A DNA stretch of 32,000 nt from Candidatus Saccharimonadota bacterium (GTDB lineage Archaea; Nanohalarchaeota; Nanosalinia; Nanosalinales; Nanosalinaceae): positions 600,001 through 632,000 of the forward strand of contig NZ_CP180230.1 in assembly GCF_047555085.1 (NCBI RefSeq). Reading direction: 5' to 3'. Under the pieces are notes generated by a model, which ran no database searches, was not told the DNA's origin, and was given only the letters and a program-made list of their open reading frames with translations. The translations under genes and the position numbers were made by a program. Within the stretch, counting starts at the first letter, position 1. Each line of letters opens with the position of its first letter. Positions 11,396 to 32,000 of the stretch are shown one piece after another.

Positions 11396-12013
11396 TCAGT
11401 CCTGGAAGTTGGTGTACTTTGAACTCGAGTCCGTATAAAGTATTCCTACGGCTCTGTGAGTAACCTGATCGACGTTTATCCTTGAAGAGTGCTCGTTGTT
11501 ATCTCCCCGCATAAGCAGGTAATCGCTTGTCTCGAGATAGTTGGCCTGGACTCTGTGGATGACGTAGCCATCACCTGTCTCGTAACGAAGTATCTCTCCT
11601 TCAGTTATCTCTCCTCCTTCGTAGGCCTGTAGAAGTACCGTGTTGCCGGAGAAAATTGTAGGCCTCATAGACTTTCCCTCGGGCTGTGCTACGGCATCAA
11701 CTTCCACCGAGGCCTCTCCATCGCCGACGCTGTAATCAACATCGGTGTAAGAGGCCTGAATGTAATTGTTGATGTTGGACTGTGATCCATCGCTTCTTAG
11801 ATTATCTGCCTGTCTGAGATCCTGCTGTGGTTCAGGACAGGTTATATTGTACGTCGGCGTCTGGACCATCTGTGTATCTTCCCCAAGATCTGAGAGTTCA
11901 TAGGTGCTGACGGCTCCCCCCAGGTAGCCTATAGCCAGCACTAGAATAACAAGAAGTACCTCCCCCAGATTTGAAAACCCCTTCCTCATATTGTTACTAC
12001 TTTGAAATAACAC
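11396..12013 (-). CDS. signal peptidase I, archaeal/eukaryal Sec11 type (S26B)
   Basis: N-terminal TM helix, then the boxes GKSMRPT (Ser), GEILRY, VIHRV (His) and RGDNN. Confidence 0.82.
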   Translation of the reverse strand: MLFQSSNNMRKGFSNLGEVLLVILVLAIGYLGGAVSTYELSDLGEDTQMVQTPTYNITCPEPQQDLRQADNLRSDGSQSNINNYIQASYTDVDYSVGDGEASVEVDAVAQPEGKSMRPTIFSGNTVLLQAYEGGEITEGEILRYETGDGYVIHRVQANYLETSDYLLMRGDNNEHSSRINVDQVTHRAVGILYTDSSSKYTNFQD

Positions 12014-12118
12014 TTAAGTACCTTTTGCTTTTGTTGTTACTTTCTCAAAACAACTAGTTCCTGTGACAAGTTATAATAACGAAAAACGAGAAAACGATGG
12101 ATGTAGAGGCCTCAAAAA

Positions 12119-12661
12119 ATGCCGGATGAAGAAGCTGATTCAGTGCGGGAGAAAATTGTTGATCGACAGAAGCAGGTCATGGAGCACAAGAGCATGGCAG
12201 GACTTCTGCTTGCCACAGCCGTTGTGCTTGCAACTTTCGGTACGGCGGCTATGCTGATGCCGGATAATCCTACAGGATCTTTCTCCGGTGACTTCAGAAT
12301 CCAGAACGTTCAGATAGAAGACGTGAATATCCGTGGCGTAGAGGCCTCTGAGACAGGCCTTACTTTCGTACAGGACTACGAAATCAGTAATCCTAATCTC
12401 CTACGGGCAGAGTTCAAGGCAGCTTCTTACCGTGTAAATGTAGAAGGCGAATCTGTTGATACAGGACACATAAATGGAGAAACAGTTATAGACACCGGAC
12501 AGAGCGAGATGATCGCCCTACTCCACGAAACAGCTTTAAGCGAGAGATACAGAGGCACCACACCAGTAACAGTTGAAGGAAAAATGGTGTTCCAGATAGG
12601 AGATACAGAGTTCGAAAGATACTACAGGAACAGCTTCGAGGCCGAGTTCCCTGTAAGATAG
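12119..12661 (+). CDS. membrane-anchored LEA_2/WHy-like protein
   Basis: TM helix (MAGLLLATAVVLATFGTAAMLM) followed by a beta-rich domain with ISNPN ... YRVNVEGESVDTG. An SD-like GAGG lies 9 nt upstream. Confidence 0.5.
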   Translation: MPDEEADSVREKIVDRQKQVMEHKSMAGLLLATAVVLATFGTAAMLMPDNPTGSFSGDFRIQNVQIEDVNIRGVEASETGLTFVQDYEISNPNLLRAEFKAASYRVNVEGESVDTGHINGETVIDTGQSEMIALLHETALSERYRGTTPVTVEGKMVFQIGDTEFERYYRNSFEAEFPVR

Positions 12662-12727
12662 TGCAACAGATGGACTTCAGTTAAACTATGCGCGAGTATT
12701 TTATTACTGCGCCAGAAAACTTTCTTC

Positions 12728-13864
12728 ATGAATATTTCCTGGACTGAAACAGAAGACGATCCTGTAGAAAACCGAGAAGTAGAGCTTGTGGAAAGAAAAG
12801 GCCTCGGTCATCCTGACAGTATCTGCGACGGCCTGGCTGAGAAAGTTTCCCGAGAGCTCTCCCGCGAATACAGGAAGAGATTCGGCCATATACTGCATCA
12901 CAACACTGATGAGGTCCAGTTAGTAGCCGGAGAATCAAATCCCGGTTTTGGAGAAGGGGAGATAGTAGAGCCTGTATTCATTCTGTTGACAGGTCGTGCC
13001 ACGAAGAGTTTTGACGGCGAGGAGATTCCTGTCGATAAAATTGCACTGGATGCTGCAAAAGAATATATCGATGAGAACTTCAAGGCCCTAGATTCTTCCC
13101 ACATCGAGTTCGAGTCCAGGATCGGTGAGACATCTACAGACCTGGCCTCTGTCTACGAACGGGAGGAAAGAATGTCGAACGATACCAGTTTCGGAGTAGG
13201 CCACGCACCGCTTTCACCTGCGGAGAAAACAGTCAGACAGGTTGAGGAAGAGGTTAGAGGCCTGGAAAGCTGCGGCGAAGATGTGAAGGTGATGGGCCTG
13301 CGTCAGGGAGAAGAGATCACTTTAACTGTAGCAGCCGCTGCGATATCCTCGCGAGTCAGCTCCATGGACGAATACAGAGAGCACCTTGAATCTGTAGAAA
13401 ATACCGCTGAGAAGATTGCTGAAGAGAACGGCTTGAGGCCTGAAGTGCATGTCAATACTGCTGACGAGATCGAGGAAGAAGAGGTCTATCTGACAGTCAC
13501 AGGTACTTCTGCCGAGATGGGGGATGATGGATCAGTGGGTAGAGGCAACAGAGTTAACGGCCTGATAACTCCCCATCGTTCGATGAGTATGGAGGCTGCC
13601 TCCGGGAAAAACCCTGTTACCCATGTCGGAAAGATTTACAACCTCCTCGCCCGAGAAATCGCGGAAGAGATTCACAGCGAAACAGGCCATTACGCCCAGG
13701 TAAAACTCCTGTCTCAGATCGGAGGCCCTATCAAGGATCCTCAACTGGTGGAAGTAGAAAGCTCTGCTGCTCAAGAAGATTTCGAGGAGATTGTAGAGAG
13801 GAAGCTGGAAGAGATCGATTCAGTGACCGAGAAATGTGTTGAAGGAGACATCAGTACTTTCTGA
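12728..13864 (+). CDS. mat: S-adenosylmethionine synthetase, archaeal type
   Basis: [14 protein letters not shown] near the N-terminus, a length of about 380 aa, and [22 protein letters not shown]-like TATTTTATTAC lies about 27 nt upstream. Confidence 0.9.
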
Positions 13865-13940
13865 TAGCCTTTCAGCCGCTGAAAGAGCCATAAGACAGAT
13901 TTTTAACATTCGAAGACGATGACAACAGTGGTGATACTGG

Positions 13941-14357
13941 ATGTATGATGAAATACTTCTTCCAACAGACGGGAGTGAGGCCTCGAAAGCTGCTTTAAAT
14001 CATGCAAAGCAGATATCAGAGAAATTTGACTCCAATATACACATAATCTATGTAGTAGACATATCCACTATGCCAGGCGACCTCAGGGGACAGGCCCATC
14101 TGGAACAGATGAAAGAATTCGGAGAAGAAACAGTGAAGTCTCTGGAAAAAGAGATGAATACCACAGCAGAGACAAAAGTTACTGTAGGCCTTCCGCATCG
14201 AGAAATCAGAGAATACGTCGAAGAAAAAGATATCGATCTAGTGACTATGGGCAGTAACGGGCGCTCAGGCCTTGACAGGATTCTGATTGGAAGCGTGACA
14301 GAAAAAGTCCTGAGAACGTGTGATACACCGGTACTGGTCTCAAGAGAAACGAAATGA
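13941..14357 (+). CDS. universal stress protein (UspA family)
   Basis: ILLPTDGSE ... GSNGRSGLDRILIGSVTEKVLRTCDTPVLV. An SD-like GGTGAT lies 6 nt upstream. Confidence 0.88.
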   Translation: MYDEILLPTDGSEASKAALNHAKQISEKFDSNIHIIYVVDISTMPGDLRGQAHLEQMKEFGEETVKSLEKEMNTTAETKVTVGLPHREIREYVEEKDIDLVTMGSNGRSGLDRILIGSVTEKVLRTCDTPVLVSRETK

Positions 14358-14367
14358 AAAGTAGTAT

Positions 14368-14385
14368 AGGCCTTTTTTGAGGCCT
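14368..14385. terminator. AGGCCT-TTTTTG-AGGCCT hairpin with T-run between convergent genes
   Basis: Two copies of the self-complementary hexamer separated by TTTTTG, located between the uspA stop (14357) and the Nudix-like stop (14404). Confidence 0.4.
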
Positions 14386-14403
14386 GGAAGATGAGAGTTC
14401 TCT

Positions 14404-14802
14404 TTATTTCTCTACAAGTGTCTCTCCGTGTTCTTCGAAGAAGTTCTGGAATTTTTCTCCGAGTTCAAGTTCCTGTATTTCTTCTGCCGTGAACCAGTCG
14501 TAGTTCTCGTTTTCTACATCGACTTTTTCCGGCTCCGGATTCTCTTCTGTAGCAGATTCCTCATCTACAAGATACCAGTGAATCCTCTCGTTGCCTGAAC
14601 CTATCTCAGTCTTAGTAACTTTTTCAACAAACTCTATCTCAACACCTGTAACACTACGTGTCTCATTCCTGGCTGCTTCTCTAAGCGTTTCTCCTTTCTC
14701 AATCTGTCTGATTATAGGCCTCCACTCGCCCTCTTTCGAATCCTCATCATTCACGACAAGGAACTCTTCATCTCTTCTTATCAATAATGCAATTCTATCC
14801 AT
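14404..14802 (-). CDS. Nudix-fold protein with degenerate Nudix box
   Basis: EKGETLREAARNETRSVTGV aligns to GX5EX7REUXEEXGU, but the RE and EE positions are NE and SV. Confidence 0.55.
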   Translation of the reverse strand: MDRIALLIRRDEEFLVVNDEDSKEGEWRPIIRQIEKGETLREAARNETRSVTGVEIEFVEKVTKTEIGSGNERIHWYLVDEESATEENPEPEKVDVENENYDWFTAEEIQELELGEKFQNFFEEHGETLVEK

Positions 14803-14837
14803 ACAGAAGTATTAGAAGGATAGAAATTTCAACCCCC

Positions 14838-15053
14838 ATGCCGGAAACAATGGAAAAATTTTACCTGAAAGGCCTCTGAAAAACTACGAAAAATAGATTC
14901 GAAAAAATTGAGGAAAAATTCGAGATACTGGATACAGGCCTCGTTCCTGTCTCGGAGATTTCTCCGGAGATCGGCGAAAAAATCGATCAGCATCTGGAAA
15001 GAATCGACAGAGGCCTGAGGATCAAAATCGTGAATCAATCAGTTGATCTATAA
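14838..15053 (+). pseudogene. 71-codon acidic ORF interrupted by one in-frame TGA (codon 14)
   Basis: Own translation gives MPETMEKFYLKGL-TGA-KTTKNRFEKIEEKFEILDTGLVPVSEISPEIGEKIDQHLERIDRGLRIKIVNQSVDL-TAA. Its composition matches the local proteome, whereas the track ORF on the opposite strand (14829..15038) is Phe-rich like an antisense shadow. Confidence 0.4.
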
Positions 15054-15081
15054 AAGAATTTCAAGTCAAGTTTTTGCCAAA

Positions 15082-15156
15082 GGGCCCGTAGCTCAGCTTG
15101 GACAGAGCGAGCGGCTTCGGACCGCTAGGTCTAGGGTTCAAATCCCTACGGGCTCG
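15082..15156 (+). tRNA. tRNA-Arg (anticodon TCG)
   Basis: Manual cloverleaf: acceptor GGGCCCG/CGGGCTC, D arm GCTC..GAGC, anticodon stem AGCGG/CCGCT with loop CTTCGGA, and T arm TAGGG-TTCAAAT-CCCTA. No intron, and CCA is not encoded. Confidence 0.9.
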
Positions 15157-15183
15157 AACTCATCTACAGAGTTCGATCATGTT

Positions 15184-15202
15184 AAGCCATGCAACATGGC
15201 TT
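15184..15202. terminator. 8-bp hairpin AAGCCATG-caa-CATGGCTT between the tRNA and the pyk 3' end
   Basis: Perfect inverted repeat read directly from the sequence. A second 6-bp hairpin, GAACTC-N7-GAGTTC, is at 15156-15174. Confidence 0.3.
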
Positions 15203-15264
15203 TCAGTCAAATTTTCTACTAGAACCCGATAGAAATAAGGAAAAATGGAGATGATAAGGCCTTT

Positions 15265-16674
15265 TTACTTGTCCATGATGCTTTCTACTGTCCTGATCTG
15301 CATCATGTTGGTGGTGCCTGTAACGGACGTCGGGATTCCTGCGGAAAGAACAAGTTCGTCTTCACCGGAGGCCAAGTTCAGACTTTTCATTCGGCGTGCG
15401 GAGGCCTCTAGCATCCCTTCAACATCATCCGGGAATTCCTCGTAGTAGGCATTTACTCCCCATGCAAGCTGCAGCTGTCTTTCAACTCTTTCCGAATCCG
15501 TGAATGCGATGATCGGGTTCTCAGGCCTGTACTTGGAGATGTTGCGTGCTGTGCTTCCTGAAGATGTGTGGGCCACGATGTACTCTGCCTCTGAGTCTCT
15601 CGCTGCCTGCCAGACGTTCTTGCAGATGATCTCTCTTGTCGTCTCCGGTGGCTGCTTGACAGTATGATGTGTATTACCTTCCATAGAGGCCTCTGCCTCT
15701 TCTACCACGTTCGACATGAATTTTACAGTTTTGACAGGGTAGTCTCCGATTGCTGTCTCGCCGGAAAGCATTACTGCATCCGTACCATCCAGTACTGCGT
15801 TCGCTACGTCGGATATCTCGGCTCTTGTGGCCGTAGGATTTTCTGTCATCGACTCCAGCATCTGTGTCGCTGTTATAACAGGTTTACCGGCCTCGTTGCA
15901 TTTCTCTATCATCTCTTTCTGCATCATCGGAAGCTCAGCCGGCGGAAGCTCTACACCTAGATCTCCACGAGCCACCATGATAGCATCAGAGGCCTCCAGG
16001 ATCTCGTCAAAGTTCTCCACGGCCTTCTTGTGTTCGATTTTCGAGATAATATGCATATCGGAATCATGCTCATCCAGGATCTCTCTGACTTCCTCTACAT
16101 CCGAGGCCTCTTTCACAAAGCTGAGGGATACAAAGTCGTAGCCTTTCTCTGCTGCGAACTCGATATCTTCAACATCTTTCTCTGTCGGTGCTGAAAGGCC
16201 TATATCTTTCCCCGGTACGTTGACTGCTTTTCTACTGGATACTTCGCCGCCGTAGACTACTGTACACTCTGCAGTGTCATCCACTTTCTCTACTTCAAGC
16301 TCGATCTTTCCGTCGTCAATCCTGACTTCGTCGCCGGCCTCAATATGATTGATGAAATCACTGTAGTTGACTGAAAGAACTTCTTCATCACCAGTGATTT
16401 CTTCATCCGTTGTCAGTTCCACGCTGTGGCCTGTCTCAAGTACTGTATCTTCCTTTACTTCTCCGAGTCTGATCTCCGGGCCTTTTGTATCGATCATTAC
16501 TGCGGTTTTCTCTGATACGTCGCGGATTCTGTCGTATATTTTTCCGTGCTGTTTGTGGTCGACGTGTGAGAAGTTCTGCCGTACTACGTCAACTCCTGAA
16601 TCAATTATTTCTGAAAGTTTCTGTTTCGAGTCTGTTGCCGGGCCTATGGTGGATATTATCTTGGTGTTTTTCAT
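15265..16674 (-). CDS. pyk: pyruvate kinase
   Basis: MKNTKIISTIGPA, MIDTKGPEIR, MVARGDLGVE and ATQMLESM are present. Confidence 0.93.
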   Translation of the reverse strand: MKNTKIISTIGPATDSKQKLSEIIDSGVDVVRQNFSHVDHKQHGKIYDRIRDVSEKTAVMIDTKGPEIRLGEVKEDTVLETGHSVELTTDEEITGDEEVLSVNYSDFINHIEAGDEVRIDDGKIELEVEKVDDTAECTVVYGGEVSSRKAVNVPGKDIGLSAPTEKDVEDIEFAAEKGYDFVSLSFVKEASDVEEVREILDEHDSDMHIISKIEHKKAVENFDEILEASDAIMVARGDLGVELPPAELPMMQKEMIEKCNEAGKPVITATQMLESMTENPTATRAEISDVANAVLDGTDAVMLSGETAIGDYPVKTVKFMSNVVEEAEASMEGNTHHTVKQPPETTREIICKNVWQAARDSEAEYIVAHTSSGSTARNISKYRPENPIIAFTDSERVERQLQLAWGVNAYYEEFPDDVEGMLEASARRMKSLNLASGEDELVLSAGIPTSVTGTTNMMQIRTVESIMDK

Positions 16675-26991: not shown

Positions 26992-28303
26992 TGGATACGA
27001 GTTAGGTACGGCGAAGGTTTTCCAGGATTTTGCAACAGCTTTCGATGCTTTGAAGACTGCGGAACAGAACGTACAGTTTTCTATTGATCCCAGTCAGGGC
27101 CTGACACGGGAACGTTATGGATGGTATTCTAATGGAAATATTTTTGATTCAAGTTATTTTTCCAGTGATGCCGGTGAAATCGGTATCTCTACGGGTACAG
27201 GCAGCACTGATACAGCAAGGATAAGATCCGGTTACGCAGGACAGTACGTTTCACAGAGTCTGGCACAGCCAGGTCATGCGGTCAGGATTGATTCCGGGAA
27301 CGTGAATATTGATGGAAGCGGCCTGGTTTCCTTGAGCCATGGTAACGTCAAGATAGGGCCTTTCATGCATGATGGCTCTCAGGTGACAGAAGGATTTTTC
27401 ATCGAGTTTGACTCCTCGGGCACAAGATTTGTCCGTGTGAGAGGAGGAACACGTGTGACAGAGGTCGATCAGGCTAACTGGAATCTGGATAATATGACCG
27501 GTCAGGGAGGCTCCGCTAATCCTTCCGGTGAACAGCTGGATCCCTCCGAAATGTATATCTACAACTATCCGTTTACTTGGTATAACTCTGGGCGGCTTTC
27601 GATCGGTAGAAGCAGGACCACCGGCATACCGAAGCCCCAGCAGATCCAGTTGTGGCACGAGTTCCAGCCAAGCGGAGAACCTAACCTGAATACTGCAAAT
27701 CTTCCTGTACAGATAGTATTTGACAACGCAGGTACAGGCCAGAGTCTTTCCGGTGCCCTGGGAGGCATGCAGTACAGTATCTACGGGGGAGATGGGCCTG
27801 TCGAGAAAAGAGTTACAGAGGCCATTGACAACGATATCTCGATAAGTGTTGCACGGAACGATCCTATCGATCCTGCGGCACAGCCAGGAACACCGATTTT
27901 TGCGGTGAGACGGCAGAGCGGCTACGAGGATCTGGAAGTTATGATCAGCGACCTGGAAGTTGTACCGTCCAGCACAGACCTGTTTTTCTACGTGTGGTAT
28001 GTCTGGGATTCGTCTGCACTTTCCGGAGCAAGCTTCAATCAGGCCTCTACAAGAAACTTCAGCTCGGAGACACGTATAGAAATCGATAAATCAGCGACGT
28101 CTTTCGATGCAACAAACGCCATCAATGAAAGAGTCTTCCGTGTAAGCGGAGCTAAAAACAACGAGAAAGTGAGTGTGTTCCCTAGAGAGGCCGAATCAAG
28201 ACTTCCTCTGGAAGCTACTGCAGTCGTAACAGCTGTAGAGGCCGATACTAACGGAAACGGGACTACAGCAGACGTCGTCATGCCTATCATCGAAGGATTC
28301 TAA
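26984..28303 (+). CDS. 439-aa G/S/T/N-rich protein, no signal peptide, unknown function
   Basis: Long ORF. ATG 26984 overlaps the upstream stop (ATGAGTGA). There is no hydrophobic N-terminus, no TM helix and no catalytic motif I recognise. Confidence 0.75.
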   Translation: MSDGYELGTAKVFQDFATAFDALKTAEQNVQFSIDPSQGLTRERYGWYSNGNIFDSSYFSSDAGEIGISTGTGSTDTARIRSGYAGQYVSQSLAQPGHAVRIDSGNVNIDGSGLVSLSHGNVKIGPFMHDGSQVTEGFFIEFDSSGTRFVRVRGGTRVTEVDQANWNLDNMTGQGGSANPSGEQLDPSEMYIYNYPFTWYNSGRLSIGRSRTTGIPKPQQIQLWHEFQPSGEPNLNTANLPVQIVFDNAGTGQSLSGALGGMQYSIYGGDGPVEKRVTEAIDNDISISVARNDPIDPAAQPGTPIFAVRRQSGYEDLEVMISDLEVVPSSTDLFFYVWYVWDSSALSGASFNQASTRNFSSETRIEIDKSATSFDATNAINERVFRVSGAKNNEKVSVFPREAESRLPLEATAVVTAVEADTNGNGTTADVVMPIIEGF

Positions 28304-28330: not shown

Positions 28331-28609
28331 GTGAGAGATATAGTCGAAACAGAGAAAATCAGCGACGAACAACTCGATGGTGTCCACGCCAGACTTGAAC
28401 AGAACTCTGAAGACCGGACAGTTATAGAAGAGACCGGTACAGAGGCCGAAAGAATCTTCCGCTACAAGTTCGAAGAGGAAGACCTTGGAGAGATATGGTA
28501 TGGACAGATCGACATAGAGATCTACGATAAAACTTTCCAGGCTCGTGGAGACGAAGCACTTCTCAACAGGTACTTTGCGGAAAACAGGATACAGGAAATA
28601 GAGTACTGA
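28331..28609 (+). CDS. 92-aa acidic hypothetical protein
   Basis: GTG start with GGAGGAG 12 nt upstream. Same strand as, and tight spacing with, its neighbours. Confidence 0.5.
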   Translation: MRDIVETEKISDEQLDGVHARLEQNSEDRTVIEETGTEAERIFRYKFEEEDLGEIWYGQIDIEIYDKTFQARGDEALLNRYFAENRIQEIEY

Positions 28610-28666
28610 AAGAACTCAAAAACTTATTAACAGAAAATTCCAAAAAACTAGTTAGAGGCCTTGAAA

Positions 28667-28933
28667 ATGAGTATTCGCTGGGATTCAGAAACTGACTGGA
28701 AAAACAATCAAGACTCCTCAGGTACTACAGGACGGAACGGAAACTTGAAGCAGGGATACTCTCATGACAGGCCTCCGCTTTCACAAGACTTGATCGGATA
28801 CTGGCCTCTACACGACGAATCAGCAACAGATTACTCAGGAAACAACAATCACGGGACTCTCAACGGCGGGCCGACGACGGGAGTTGCAGGAAAAGGAGGC
28901 CTTGAAGCAATGAGTTTCGACGGCTCCGATGAT
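28667..28933 (+). repeat. Paralogous 5' module shared with 31220-31486 (roughly three-quarters nt identity by eye)
   Basis: Aligned by eye. It includes an identical 25-mer, TCGGATACTGGCCTCTACACGACGA (28794-28818 = 31347-31371). An 18-mer core is also at 30101-30118. The second shared block, 29371-29450 = 31921-32000, is even more similar. Confidence 0.8.
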
Positions 28934-30091
28934 TATATTTCTGTAGGATCTTTGAATGTAGGAACTACAGTTACAGCTACAGCGTGGGTTAATCTGGATG
29001 AGAGAAAGTCCAGTGAAAATCATACTATAGGCCCTCATGTGGACAACGGAAGCACACAGGGATTCAGAATATTTACTGATTCAGACACAGAAGAGGTAGG
29101 TGTCTGGACGAGAAATGATAACAGCTCCGTTGATAATCTAGTGAGTTCCTACTTGCCGCCGCTGAATGAATGGGTGTTCATAGCATTCACATATGACGGT
29201 TCAACAGGCCGACTATACGCCGATGGACAGGAAATCGCTTCAGGCATTATGGAGGCAAATTCCTTCGCCGGGACAAGCTTCATAGCCAGGTACTCGGGAG
29301 GAGGTTACAATCTAAACGGGCAGCAAGCCGGCGTAAGACTCTACAACGGGCCTCTCTCACAGAGCGAGATAAATACACTGTACGAATGGGGATCAGGCGA
29401 TTATGCAAGGCCTCCGAGTGACGGTGTTTCATACTACAAGTTAGATGGTGACGCCAATGATAGTTGGGGAGCCAACGATGGGAGTAACAGTGGCGCTGCT
29501 TTTATCTCGGACTCTATTCGGGGGAGTGCCTTAGAGTTTAATGCCGGTGAGAGTGACCGTGTTGATATATCTCATGTAACTGAGCTTAATCCGTCGAACG
29601 GGCGTTTGACTGTTTCCTGCTGGGTGAAGTCGGATTCAGCTCCGTCGAATACGCCAGGGATAGTTGGAAAGGTAGACGGTGCGTTCGCCAACGGATATCA
29701 GTTGTTCCACAACGGAGATGGTACTGTGACTTTCCGGGTCGAGGATTCACCGGAGAACGTGGCCACTGTCTCCAGCAGCAACAGTATATCACACGGCAAC
29801 TGGACCATGATCACTGCAGTACTTGACAGGCCTAACGGCGTTCAGAGGCTTCACATCAACGGGGAAACAGTTGATACGAACGATCCATCCAATCTTAAGA
29901 CAGTGGACCCGTCTGCAGATCTGAAGTTCGGGGTTTTTGATCCTCCAAACAGCAGCAAGGAACGCTACTGGTCAGGTAAGTTAGACGACGTACGGATCTA
30001 CGACTACGCTCTCAAACCATACGAAGTAGCTGAAACTTACAGGTACGGTACGAGAGGCCGTGACCTGAGAAAACAACTGGTGAATCACTGA
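28667..30091 (+). CDS. tandem LamG (Laminin_G_3 / concanavalin-A-like) domain protein, no signal peptide
   Basis: There are two units. Unit 1 opens with GYWPLHDESATDYSGNNNHGTLNGG...MSFDGSDDYISV and closes with AGVRLYNGPLSQSEINTLYEWG. Unit 2 opens with YYKLDGDANDSWGANDGSNSGA and closes with DDVRIYDYALKPYEV. ATG 28667 (MSIRWDSE) matches the paralogue start MAIRWDSE. Confidence 0.85.
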   Translation: MSIRWDSETDWKNNQDSSGTTGRNGNLKQGYSHDRPPLSQDLIGYWPLHDESATDYSGNNNHGTLNGGPTTGVAGKGGLEAMSFDGSDDYISVGSLNVGTTVTATAWVNLDERKSSENHTIGPHVDNGSTQGFRIFTDSDTEEVGVWTRNDNSSVDNLVSSYLPPLNEWVFIAFTYDGSTGRLYADGQEIASGIMEANSFAGTSFIARYSGGGYNLNGQQAGVRLYNGPLSQSEINTLYEWGSGDYARPPSDGVSYYKLDGDANDSWGANDGSNSGAAFISDSIRGSALEFNAGESDRVDISHVTELNPSNGRLTVSCWVKSDSAPSNTPGIVGKVDGAFANGYQLFHNGDGTVTFRVEDSPENVATVSSSNSISHGNWTMITAVLDRPNGVQRLHINGETVDTNDPSNLKTVDPSADLKFGVFDPPNSSKERYWSGKLDDVRIYDYALKPYEVAETYRYGTRGRDLRKQLVNH

Positions 30092-30778
30092 ATGGTACTA
30101 GTCGGATACTGGCCTCTAAACGAAACCTCCGGAACAACGGCATACGACGTCAGGAACGGAAACGATGGAACAGTCAACGGTGCCGGACCTGATGGAACAG
30201 GTACTTCTTCAGGCCTGCTTAACTCCTCAGCGTACTCGTTTGATGGGACTGATGACTATGTGACTATGCCTCGTTCGAGGGAAGGTTTTCCGAAAAGCTA
30301 TTCTGTATGGTTTAACCCGGGAGATGGTTCCGGATATCCTGCAGTACTACGTGATGATTACCATACTCAGGACGCTTACAGTGGAATAAGTATACAGTAT
30401 AACGCTCCAGACACCTGGGCGCTACAGATAGGCGATGGCAGCGGATCAGGTTCCAGCCACAGAAAAAGTCACAAAGGAGGAGATTTAACTCTGGGAAACT
30501 GGCATCACCTTGTTGCCGTGGCAAGAGGAGTAAACGATGTAGAACTCTACAAAAACGGTGTAAACGACTACAAAGGTGTTTCAGGAAGCGGGAGTTCAGT
30601 TCAGTACATCGGCTCGAAAAACGTTATGGGATTCAGGCCCGCAGGAAGCTACTACACTCCAGGAAAAATACAGCATGTCAGAATCTACGACCACGCACTG
30701 ACACCGCAGGAAGTACAGTACATGTATTCAGTCGGAAAAAATAGAGGCCTGCACATCTCCAGCGAAAAAACTCTGTAA
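30092..30778 (+). CDS. single LamG-domain protein, no signal peptide
   Basis: MVLVGYWPLNETSGTTAYDVRNGNDGTVNG...YSFDGTDDYVTM...IQHVRIYDHALTPQEVQYMY. The start codon directly abuts the upstream stop (TGAATG). Confidence 0.85.
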   Translation: MVLVGYWPLNETSGTTAYDVRNGNDGTVNGAGPDGTGTSSGLLNSSAYSFDGTDDYVTMPRSREGFPKSYSVWFNPGDGSGYPAVLRDDYHTQDAYSGISIQYNAPDTWALQIGDGSGSGSSHRKSHKGGDLTLGNWHHLVAVARGVNDVELYKNGVNDYKGVSGSGSSVQYIGSKNVMGFRPAGSYYTPGKIQHVRIYDHALTPQEVQYMYSVGKNRGLHISSEKTL

Positions 30779-30804
30779 AAAACTTCCGAAAGATAAATCC
30801 CAGT

Positions 30805-30816
30805 AAAAAATTTTTT
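30805..30816. terminator. A6T6 palindromic oligo-T tract between convergent genes
   Basis: AAAAAATTTTTT gives a T6 run on both strands, between the LamG stop (30778) and the gatC stop (30817). Archaeal termination commonly uses oligo-T. Confidence 0.4.
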
Positions 30817-31095
30817 CTAGGCGCTTGGGCCTTTGAAGTATCCTTCTTCCTCGTTTTCCGTATTCTGGAAGACTTCTTCTTTTTCAAGAGTTTCCTCTTT
30901 CTCATCGCTTCTTGTCGTCGAATCGACGTCCACAGGATGGAAAGATGGCTCAACATCTTCTGTATCAACTTCGTCAAGAGTCTCGAACATTCCCAGAATC
31001 TTATCGAATTCCTCTGAGAACTTCGAGGCCTCTTCATCTGAAAGATTGATCCTTGCGTTCTTCGCAACTTTCTGAACTTCTTTTTGATCTACCAT
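30817..31095 (-). CDS. gatC: aspartyl/glutamyl-tRNA amidotransferase subunit C
   Basis: 92 aa. VQKVAKNARINLSDEEASKFSEEFDKILGMFETLDEVDTEDVEP is the typical GatC pattern. Confidence 0.85.
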   Translation of the reverse strand: MVDQKEVQKVAKNARINLSDEEASKFSEEFDKILGMFETLDEVDTEDVEPSFHPVDVDSTTRSDEKEETLEKEEVFQNTENEEEGYFKGPSA

Positions 31096-31219
31096 ACTTC
31101 AGAACTGTAGACAAATTCTTTAGTAATCCACGGAGAGCCCAAAAAAATTTCCACAGGCCTCTGAAAAGTAATTTATTAGGAAGATTCAAATTAACTTATA
31201 GAGGCCTCAGAAATTTTTC

Positions 31220-32000
31220 ATGGCGATAAGATGGGATTCAGAAAGCGACTGGGAGAACAGTCAGGACAGTTCCGGTACAGTCGGCAGAAATGGAAATCTA
31301 CGGCAAGGATATTCAAGAGAAAAGCCTCCGCTTTCTCAAGGCCTTGTCGGATACTGGCCTCTACACGACGATTCGGCGACTGATTACTCAGGAAATAATA
31401 ATCATGGAACACTCAATGGCGGAGTCACGACAGGCATCGCTGGAAAAGCTGGTTTACAGGCGATGAGTTTTGATGGGAGCGATGATAGTATCGATATTCC
31501 TGATCAGCTTTTATCTAATGGCTCTTCTTTAACTCTTTCTTTCTGGTTCAAGGCCGATACACTAGGGAACGATGATCGTCCTGTGGCAATCAGCCAGAGC
31601 CATGAATGCCTTGCAAATATAGGTCGTTCAGGAACTAACGAGATTGGTGTTCGATGGAGAGCAGGAGACGGTAACGCGAGAGATTATGAATTCAAAACTA
31701 TTTCTACAGATACATGGCATCACTATGCAGTTACCTATGACAGTAGCTCAGGCGACTTGAAAGGCTATCTTAACTCAACAGAACAGCTGTATAAAGCCGG
31801 TATTGGTTCTTCAGGTATAAGTCAGGAATCGGCTATAGGGCAGAAAGGAGGTACAGGATATTTCAATGGAAAAATCTCAGACGTCCGTATATACAACCGT
31901 ACTCTATCCTTATCCGAAATAAATACGCTGTACGAATGGGGATCTGGCGACTATGCGAGGCCTCCAAACGACGGAACGGCATACTACAAGTTTGATGGTG
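31220..32000 (+). CDS. LamG-domain protein, paralogue of 28667..30091, truncated at the window end
   Basis: Own translation gives MAIRWDSESDWENSQDSSGTVGRNGNLRQGYSREKPPLSQGLVGYWPLHDDSATDYSGNNNHGTLNGG...ISDVRIYNRTLSLSEINTLYEWGSGDYARPPNDGTAYYKFDG, with no stop to base 32000. It is not in the ORF track. Confidence 0.85.
   Translation, partial: MAIRWDSESDWENSQDSSGTVGRNGNLRQGYSREKPPLSQGLVGYWPLHDDSATDYSGNNNHGTLNGGVTTGIAGKAGLQAMSFDGSDDSIDIPDQLLSNGSSLTLSFWFKADTLGNDDRPVAISQSHECLANIGRSGTNEIGVRWRAGDGNARDYEFKTISTDTWHHYAVTYDSSSGDLKGYLNSTEQLYKAGIGSSGISQESAIGQKGGTGYFNGKISDVRIYNRTLSLSEINTLYEWGSGDYARPPNDGTAYYKFDG

Follow-up and report, generated by a model that had tools for sequence, protein, structure and literature searches.

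How DPANN archaea recognize specific hosts and keep hold of them is a question for which proteins with laminin G (LamG) domains are the usual suspects, without a mechanism. We approached it through three LamG genes of the nanohaloarchaeon Candidatus Nanosalina sp. VS9-1, a member of the DPANN whose complete chromosome measures 1,046,238 bp; Nanosalina is an obligate ectosymbiont with a haloarchaeal host. The genes (genes 1 to 3; Table 1) lie at one end of a 32,000-nucleotide stretch of the chromosome, here called the window. The original prediction, made from the letters of the window alone, had described them as plus-strand paralogues with shared blocks, interrupted by gatC on the opposite strand between the second and third copies. 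The three open reading frames (ORFs), their Laminin_G_3 domain calls, the shared blocks and the place of gatC were all correct, as judged by ORF check, Pfam and alignment. In a hidden Markov model search, Laminin_G_3 (PF13385) matched gene 1 over two stretches (E 5e-49, 166.7 bits), gene 2 (E 6e-21, 75.6 bits) and gene 3 (E 7e-24, 85.1 bits), each above the gathering threshold of 27.6 bits. Gene 3 runs past the window; its residues inside the window are identical to the full-length product, P0002, at 260 of 260 positions, and since P0002 adds a second LamG domain beyond the window end, the three genes encode five such domains altogether. With moderate confidence, we conclude that the most likely function of these proteins is that of diversifying host-recognition lectins, related to viral tail-module proteins and mounted via a conserved head. 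We give a probability of roughly 0.55 to the reading that genes 1 to 3 encode LamG lectins that are related to virus tails and serve as adhesins in host recognition, their export perhaps depending on partners that carry a twin-arginine translocation (Tat) signal.

A protein search recovered 212 relatives, the closest of which are all nanohaloarchaeal and about 420 to 490 aa long, and VS9-1 itself has at least seven two-domain members. A scan of genome contigs gave mostly generic LamG proteins. Genes 1 to 3 belong to a multigene family specific to Nanohaloarchaeota. Genes 1 and 3 are 51% identical overall, with near-identical heads and first strands and an identical linker, INTLYEWGSGDYARPP. 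Alignments A1 and A2 defined the frame of the family: an optional head of about 40 aa (MxIRWDSExDW..QDSSGT.GRNG.LKQGYS), an N-terminal block or N-block (GYWPLH..DYSGN.NHG.LNGG.TTGVAGKGGL.A.SFDG.DDY), a linker (LYEWGSGDYARPP) and a C-terminal tail (LYRYGTRGRDMRKQLVNH), which for gene 3 is located outside the window. About half of the family is headless and begins directly at MTGLIGWWPLHE. Among 23 head-bearing members, identity reached 73% in the head, 76% in the N-block, 50% in the linker and 61% in the tail, and was 18% in the interior of either LamG domain. The conserved anchor with variable lectin-like bodies that had been proposed for the window is therefore real and family-wide. The usual unit is a two-gene operon. 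Its first gene encodes about 470 aa, made up of an optional head, two LamG domains and a basic tail; after a gap of 0 to 27 nt comes a single-LamG gene encoding about 205 to 228 aa with a conserved tail of its own (the window and loci L001, L083, L089 and L092). Gene 2 starts one base past the stop of gene 1, and its tail, MYSVGKNRGLHISSEKTL, is similar to the sequence ...QEVQYLYQVG.RGLHTS with which its relatives end. Gene 1 was missing from the results of its own homology search because the protein collection, clustered at 90% identity, places it under P0292, an unrelated 52-aa Firmicute ORF. The clustering is an artefact of the database, and P0292, which leads to Firmicute contigs, was rejected as a relative of gene 1.

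A frame of this kind might reflect an ordinary expansion of LamG paralogues, the head being a mere N-terminal extension and the conservation a structural constraint of Laminin_G_3. Expansions of LamG proteins are common in DPANN and candidate phyla radiation (CPR) organisms (PMC7443923, PMC10266531), the headless half of the family fits such an account, and the PF13385 profile is itself most conserved at both edges of the domain. However, the head is well conserved even though it is predicted to be disordered, and it turns up as a separate module behind Tat signals, behind an N-terminal domain resembling that of HGTV-1 gp33 and within large viral tail proteins. In addition, a domain swap and an excess of divergence relative to flanking genes, both described below, surpass simple fold constraints. 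We regard this explanation as unlikely.

The relationship to viruses was traced through the head. A head-only profile run against 1.84 billion representative proteins returned 364 proteins, in which the head stood at the N-terminus, directly after Tat signals, in halovirus-type proteins of 370 to 400 aa, or after an N-terminal domain (N-domain) 53% identical to the start of HGTV-1 gp33, the gene for which lies at the end of the baseplate region of that virus. The head was also found inside large viral tail proteins; no relative was found among solved structures. In tblastn, P0165, a head-LamG protein from the head-profile search, matched the head region of HHTV-2 gp63 (E 7e-21) as well as HCTV-2 gp59, the LamG protein of HVTV-1/2 (named "laminin G domain-containing protein") and HHTV-1 gp36, which places the module in four cultured haloarchaeal tailed viruses. 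The genes for HHTV-2 gp63 and HCTV-2 gp59 directly follow a "baseplate protein" gene, the HVTV-1/2 LamG gene directly follows that for a "T4 gp9/gp10-like baseplate protein" (annotation as in HVTV-2), and the gene for HHTV-1 gp36 directly follows the tape-measure gene. Gene 1 itself aligned with HHTV-2 gp63 from residue 2 onward, head included (E 2e-11). In L094 (IMGVR_UViG_3300003314_000006), a contig of an uncultured tailed virus, genes for baseplate wedge and baseplate proteins precede that for a fibre-like protein; two small ORFs come next, and then a 462-aa head-plus-two-LamG protein that aligned with residues 2 to 463 of gene 1 (29% identical, E 1e-30), after which comes a headless multi-LamG protein with the family N-terminal motif. 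The 462-aa protein has the same head, LamG1, linker, LamG2 and tail start as gene 1 and differs in its location past baseplate wedge and fibre genes, in a virus.

Haloviral tail LamG proteins of the HHTV-2 gp63 type share with the window proteins a head motif (W-x-[ST]-x-x-[DE]-W-D ... SG ... LKQGY) directly before LamG, and both lack a signal peptide. The viral proteins have one LamG domain followed by a C-terminal "LETATKSF..." domain, a short pre-head peptide and a gene position after baseplate or tape-measure genes, whereas the window proteins have two LamG domains (or one), another tail and housekeeping neighbors; no baseplate or tail genes were found in the window by Pfam and PHROG scans. 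A likeness to viral receptor-binding proteins had been put forward as an analogy, and it is now backed by homology and shared architecture with the HHTV-2, HCTV-2, HVTV-1/2, HHTV-1 and L094 proteins. A literature search on laminin G in haloarchaeal tailed viruses found nothing, and neither did one on VS9-1. A small protein with the motif WY..(G/K)(Y/H)H.CDHD...GCS.D was observed directly upstream of head-LamG genes (L094 6123-6518; L090 91-450) and, in P0204, fused to head-LamG at the N-terminus; it has no family match and may be a tail-fibre assembly factor.

The AlphaFold2 (AF2) model of gene 1, run on alignment A2, had a predicted local distance difference test score (pLDDT) of 87.5 and a predicted template modeling score (pTM) of 0.82. 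It consisted of two LamG beta-sandwiches with helical linker and tail segments, and head residues 1 to 32 were disordered. At E 1e-12 to 1e-14, Foldseek matched the model to laminin LG4-5, the tetanus and botulinum Hc receptor-binding domains and neurexin; numerous LamG proteins of phages were matched as well. As modeled, gene 1 has the beta-sandwich jelly-roll fold of the Laminin_G_3 / ConA-like superfamily.

How old the paralogues are, and how they vary, was addressed at the nucleotide level. Genes 1 and 3 share repeats of 73% (28679-28938 and 31232-31491) and 78% identity (29342-29450 and 31892-32000), so the predicted nucleotide conservation of head and linker does exist, but it is merely what conservation of the amino acids enforces. 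Synonymous sites were saturated in the head, N-terminal block and linker (proportion of synonymous differences, pS, 0.65 to 0.84), and the ratio of nonsynonymous to synonymous substitution (dN/dS) was 0.06 to 0.13 in the N-terminal block and linker. The nucleotide similarity thus reflects purifying selection acting on paralogues that are old. The frame as a whole (head, first strands, linker and tail) is under strong purifying selection. Local duplication had been suggested earlier; a recent one does not agree with the saturated synonymous sites, nor with the finding that the closest relative of gene 1 lies at a different locus in another strain. Gene conversion between genes 1 and 3 was likewise rejected, given the saturation and a longest exact match of 25 nt. 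The search for recombination tracts gave a divided result: there was no long identical tract between genes 1 and 3, but gene 1 and P0001, from the uvrD locus of another strain, form a mosaic in which the LamG1 interiors are 83% identical (dS 0.59) and the LamG2 interiors 19%. Whole domains have been exchanged between family members, with this pair as the one clear case.

The variable bodies had also been likened to phase-variable adhesins. At the genes we found no relevant simple or tandem repeats, homopolymer tracts, invertible repeats or long identical tracts, and the one weak inverted repeat lay elsewhere. With no repeat, invertible or silent-cassette signature and with saturated synonymous sites, phase variation was rejected within the window. 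Targeting by a diversity-generating retroelement (DGR) was rejected within the window as well, because no reverse transcriptase domain was present among the scanned window ORFs and there was no template-like repeat that could make up a template/variable repeat pair.

The gatC locus differs between related strains: L085 has the order vsp-gatC-ftsZ without LamG genes, L083 has a LamG pair solely downstream of gatC, and the window has LamG genes on both sides. Because synteny varies in this way, insertion around a core gene, which the original prediction had offered beside duplication, is supported. The LamG genes diverge far faster than their neighbors: between relatives, housekeeping genes at the gatC locus are 77 to 92% identical and the positional LamG counterpart 44%, and at the uvrD locus the flanking genes are 70 to 72% identical and the LamG genes 39% and 32%. 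In L083, positions 11652-15406 hold a duplicated 57-aa piece of gatC, a copy of the segment matching window positions 24961-25049 and a 1068-aa protein with a C-terminal part like a CARDB paralogue, which together indicate local rearrangement or duplication beside gatC. After the LamG pair at the uvrD locus (L001 3402-3665; L092 12130-12402) lies a conserved protein of 87 to 90 aa, 72% identical, with a Cys/His motif (CPCPFRGDMCSHQIAAHLL); it has no Pfam match and may be a SWIM-like zinc finger.

Homology to viral proteins and an insertion that varies between strains also raise the possibility that the genes are viral, encoding tail fibres or receptor-binding proteins of a Nanosalina provirus, whether integrated or decayed, or being morons of such a provirus. 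The signal peptides would then be missing because the proteins are assembled into virions in the cytoplasm. Beyond the common architecture with viral tail-module proteins and the strain-variable gatC locus, this explanation can draw on the G+C content of L094 (45.8%), which is near that of the window (46.2%), and on an adjoining 440-aa gene, which matches a phage virion structural family and has a homologue in a virus-like 110-kb contig. However, no terminase, portal, capsid, baseplate or integrase was present among the scanned ORFs of the 32-kb window, where the neighbors are gatCAB, pyruvate kinase and lysyl-tRNA synthetase (LysRS). Elsewhere, members occur singly or in pairs among housekeeping genes with conserved synteny (the uvrD locus, L001 and L092; the aCPSF1/SepF locus, L093). 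At least seven old paralogues under purifying selection, and relatives fused to Tat signals that virion proteins do not need, also fit poorly with a provirus, and we think such an origin improbable.

The 440-aa gene forms a pair with a gene for a 120-aa protein. The smaller product matched Pfam TAT_signal at E 0.0067, below the family cut-off, and is 62 to 65% identical in L083 and L085. For the larger, the ORF stretch 26984-28300 is identical to ACK3SF_03705; it matched the phage "virion structural protein" family phrog_1645 (PHROG E 3e-21), had no Pfam match, and in tblastn matched phage phiGT1 and HGTV-1 gp10. Its AF2 model (pLDDT 85.8) matched ERGIC-53 and legume lectins in Foldseek at E about 1e-6. 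Homology to the haloviral T4 gp9/gp10-like baseplate protein was considered and rejected, as BLASTP showed no significant similarity and the predicted fold is that of an L-type lectin. A homologous pair minus the Tat signal is present in the virus-like 110-kb contig (L086 9501-11365), and HGTV-1 gp10 is encoded between the portal and prohead protease genes, an arrangement reminiscent of the "glucanase after portal" genes that were described for environmental haloviruses (PMC3316494). The pair in the window may represent a viral lectin that was domesticated and is exported through Tat.

A surface role for genes 1 to 3 requires a route out of the cell. As predicted, none of the three proteins has an N-terminal hydrophobic signal: no signal peptide or membrane segment was found, no 19-residue window exceeded a Kyte-Doolittle mean of 0.94, and a twin-arginine motif with a hydrophobic region was absent from all three N-termini. 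The original prediction had deduced from this that export or assembly must be unconventional; the relatives point to a candidate route. Locus L089 encodes, in order, a small Tat-signal protein, a 695-aa protein made of a Tat signal, N-domain, head and two LamG domains, a one-LamG protein, tatA and tatC. One tight operon in L003 has two Tat-bearing head-LamG genes and a small Tat-signal protein, then signal-less two-LamG and one-LamG genes, and in L004 and L006 a small Tat-signal protein lies upstream of a signal-less head-two-LamG protein. Tat-fused and Tat-adjoining relatives argue that the module works outside the cell, and Tat-bearing homologues, one of them beside tatA and tatC, make the Tat route a concrete candidate for co-export. 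Export by Tat "hitchhiking", for which the cases known are redox enzymes, occurs with HybO/HybC and DmsA/DmsB of Escherichia coli. The LamG proteins would follow the same logic, in that a folded, signal-less subunit would be exported while bound to a partner with a twin-arginine signal. In the LamG family, the operons of relatives mix Tat-bearing and signal-less LamG genes; unlike the hitchhikers, the arrangement is known from genes alone and the partner is hypothetical. We suggest, with low confidence, that genes 1 to 3 are perhaps co-exported with a Tat-signal partner.

The proteins might instead stay in the cytoplasm and not be adhesive at all, acting as decoys or assembly poisons that bind viral components, on entry or during assembly, through the virus-like head, or as intracellular glycan binders. 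The missing signal peptides and transmembrane segments are what such proteins would show, the head is common to viral tail proteins, and the fast evolution and strain variation resemble those of defense genes. However, homologous modules elsewhere in nanohaloarchaea have Tat signals and adjoin tatA and tatC, extracellular binding is typical of domains with this type of LamG fold, and neither the Pfam nor the PHROG scan showed defense-system genes nearby, although PADLOC was not searched. We consider a cytoplasmic role very unlikely.

Returning to host-recognition adhesins as the preferred reading, we propose the following mechanism. Nanosalina would recognize glycans or glycoproteins on its haloarchaeal host through these proteins. 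The disordered but conserved head would be a docking peptide, by which the lectin would attach to a baseplate or fibre protein in viruses and to a surface-anchored carrier in the cell. The variable interiors would be the ligand-binding parts; if they bind ligand, the set of paralogues would fix or broaden the host range. The signal-less proteins of the window would be carried to the surface, already folded, by a partner with a Tat signal; this is the step of which we are least sure. A bolder version, which we regard as doubtful, is that the receptor-binding module in the tails of archaeal tailed viruses was domesticated by a DPANN ectosymbiont, or is common to both through gene transfer. Here the 40-aa head would be a baseplate adaptor that in the cell plugs interchangeable LamG lectins onto a Tat-exported, fibre-like carrier, making them Tat hitchhikers. 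If that were true, the symbiont would seize the same host-surface structures as haloviruses.

Several observations weigh against the adhesin reading. Genes 1 to 3 are without a signal of any kind, and the family loci L001, L092 and L093 have no nearby Tat-signal gene. The Tat-signal protein of the window (26629-26991) is translationally coupled to the 440-aa lectin-fold gene and not to the LamG genes, and its likeness to Tat proteins at other LamG loci is confined to the signal region. N-glycosylation sequons occur at 1.1 to 1.5 per 100 aa, mildly above cytoplasmic proteins (about 0.5) and far below a CARDB-domain neighbor (5.5). Conserved ends around a variable middle are in part a property of Laminin_G_3 domains as such. 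In their annotation the viral LamG proteins are hypothetical proteins, with a receptor-binding role suggested by gene position alone, and the extracellular location of the LamG proteins would follow from the sequences and gene context of their relatives.

LamG proteins have been proposed as host-attachment proteins of nanohaloarchaea, and in SVXNc they are co-encoded with a protein that has a pyocin-knob (phage tail fibre-like) domain (PMC7443923, PMC10266531). The published proteins share with genes 1 to 3 the phylum, the Laminin_G_3 / ConA-like fold, strain specificity, clustering in the genome and a proposed role in host recognition (PMC7443923, PMC10266531). They are described as secreted or membrane bound, with up to five LamG domains (PMC7443923, PMC10266531), whereas the window proteins (228 to 474 aa) have no secretion signal or anchor (Kyte-Doolittle maximum 0.94, no RR motif), possess an RGRD tail and a head of 40 aa that is conserved, and are arranged in pairs of a two-domain and a one-domain protein. 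The signal-less head/tail architecture, the two-gene unit, domain swapping, homology to viral tail modules and Tat-fused relatives are new with respect to the published proteins. With a head proposed for docking, a frame that is conserved, exchangeable binding domains, Tat-linked relatives and a link to virus tails, the family supplies defined parts with which host recognition becomes testable, and it raises the possibility that haloarchaeal symbionts and viruses share one pool of host-recognition modules.

Table 1. LamG genes of the window, their parts and adjoining features (positions are those of the window)
Feature	Position	Strand	Description
Small Tat-signal protein	26629-26991	+	120 aa; twin-arginine signal SRREFLKTLMLGTAATGLYASLPSVSA; overlaps next gene by 11 nt
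Lectin-fold protein (ACK3SF_03705)	26981-28303	+	440 aa; ConA-like / L-type lectin fold (predicted); syntenic in Nanosalina relatives
Acidic small ORF	28331-28609	+	92 aa; upstream of gene 1; 45% identical in L083, absent in L085
Candidate promoter and leader, gene 1	28624-28666	+	TTATTA box 28624-28629; AGAGGCCT 28654-28661; read from sequence
Gene 1	28667-30091	+	474 aa, two LamG domains; WP_414837349.1 (exact match to NCBI protein)
Gene 1, head	aa 1-41 (28667-28789)	+	
Gene 1, conserved N-block	aa 42-90	+	
Gene 1, LamG1 interior	aa 91-217 (28937-29317)	+	variable
Gene 1, linker	aa 218-290	+	
Gene 1, LamG2 interior	aa 291-434 (29537-29968)	+	variable
Gene 1, tail		+	conserved; YRYGTRGRDLRKQLVNH
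Gene 2	30092-30778	+	228 aa, single LamG domain; WP_414837350.1 (exact match to NCBI protein)
gatC	30817-31095	-	housekeeping gene between LamG genes; Pfam GatC E 8e-19; 77% identical to gatC of L083 and L085
Candidate promoter and leader, gene 3	31172-31219	+	TTTATTA 31172-31178; AGAGGCCT 31200-31207; read from sequence
Gene 3	31220 to beyond 32000	+	472 aa (P0002, WP_414837352.1, exact match); 260 aa inside window

Upstream of both gene 1 and gene 3, AGAGGCCT lies 6 to 12 nt before the start codon, with a TTATTA box about 40 nt upstream; sharing these two motifs, the genes may have independent but similar promoters and leaders. The 92-aa ORF ahead of gene 1 had no family match in the Pfam and PHROG scans. 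The LamG genes have housekeeping neighbors in the window, among them gatA, gatB and the genes for pyruvate kinase, LysRS and S-adenosylmethionine synthetase, and the VS9-1 proteome is strongly acidic. The CARDB-domain neighbor (25134-26489, minus strand) has an N-terminal signal peptide and is 56 to 58% identical in close relatives; given its sequon density, it is probably a heavily glycosylated surface protein.

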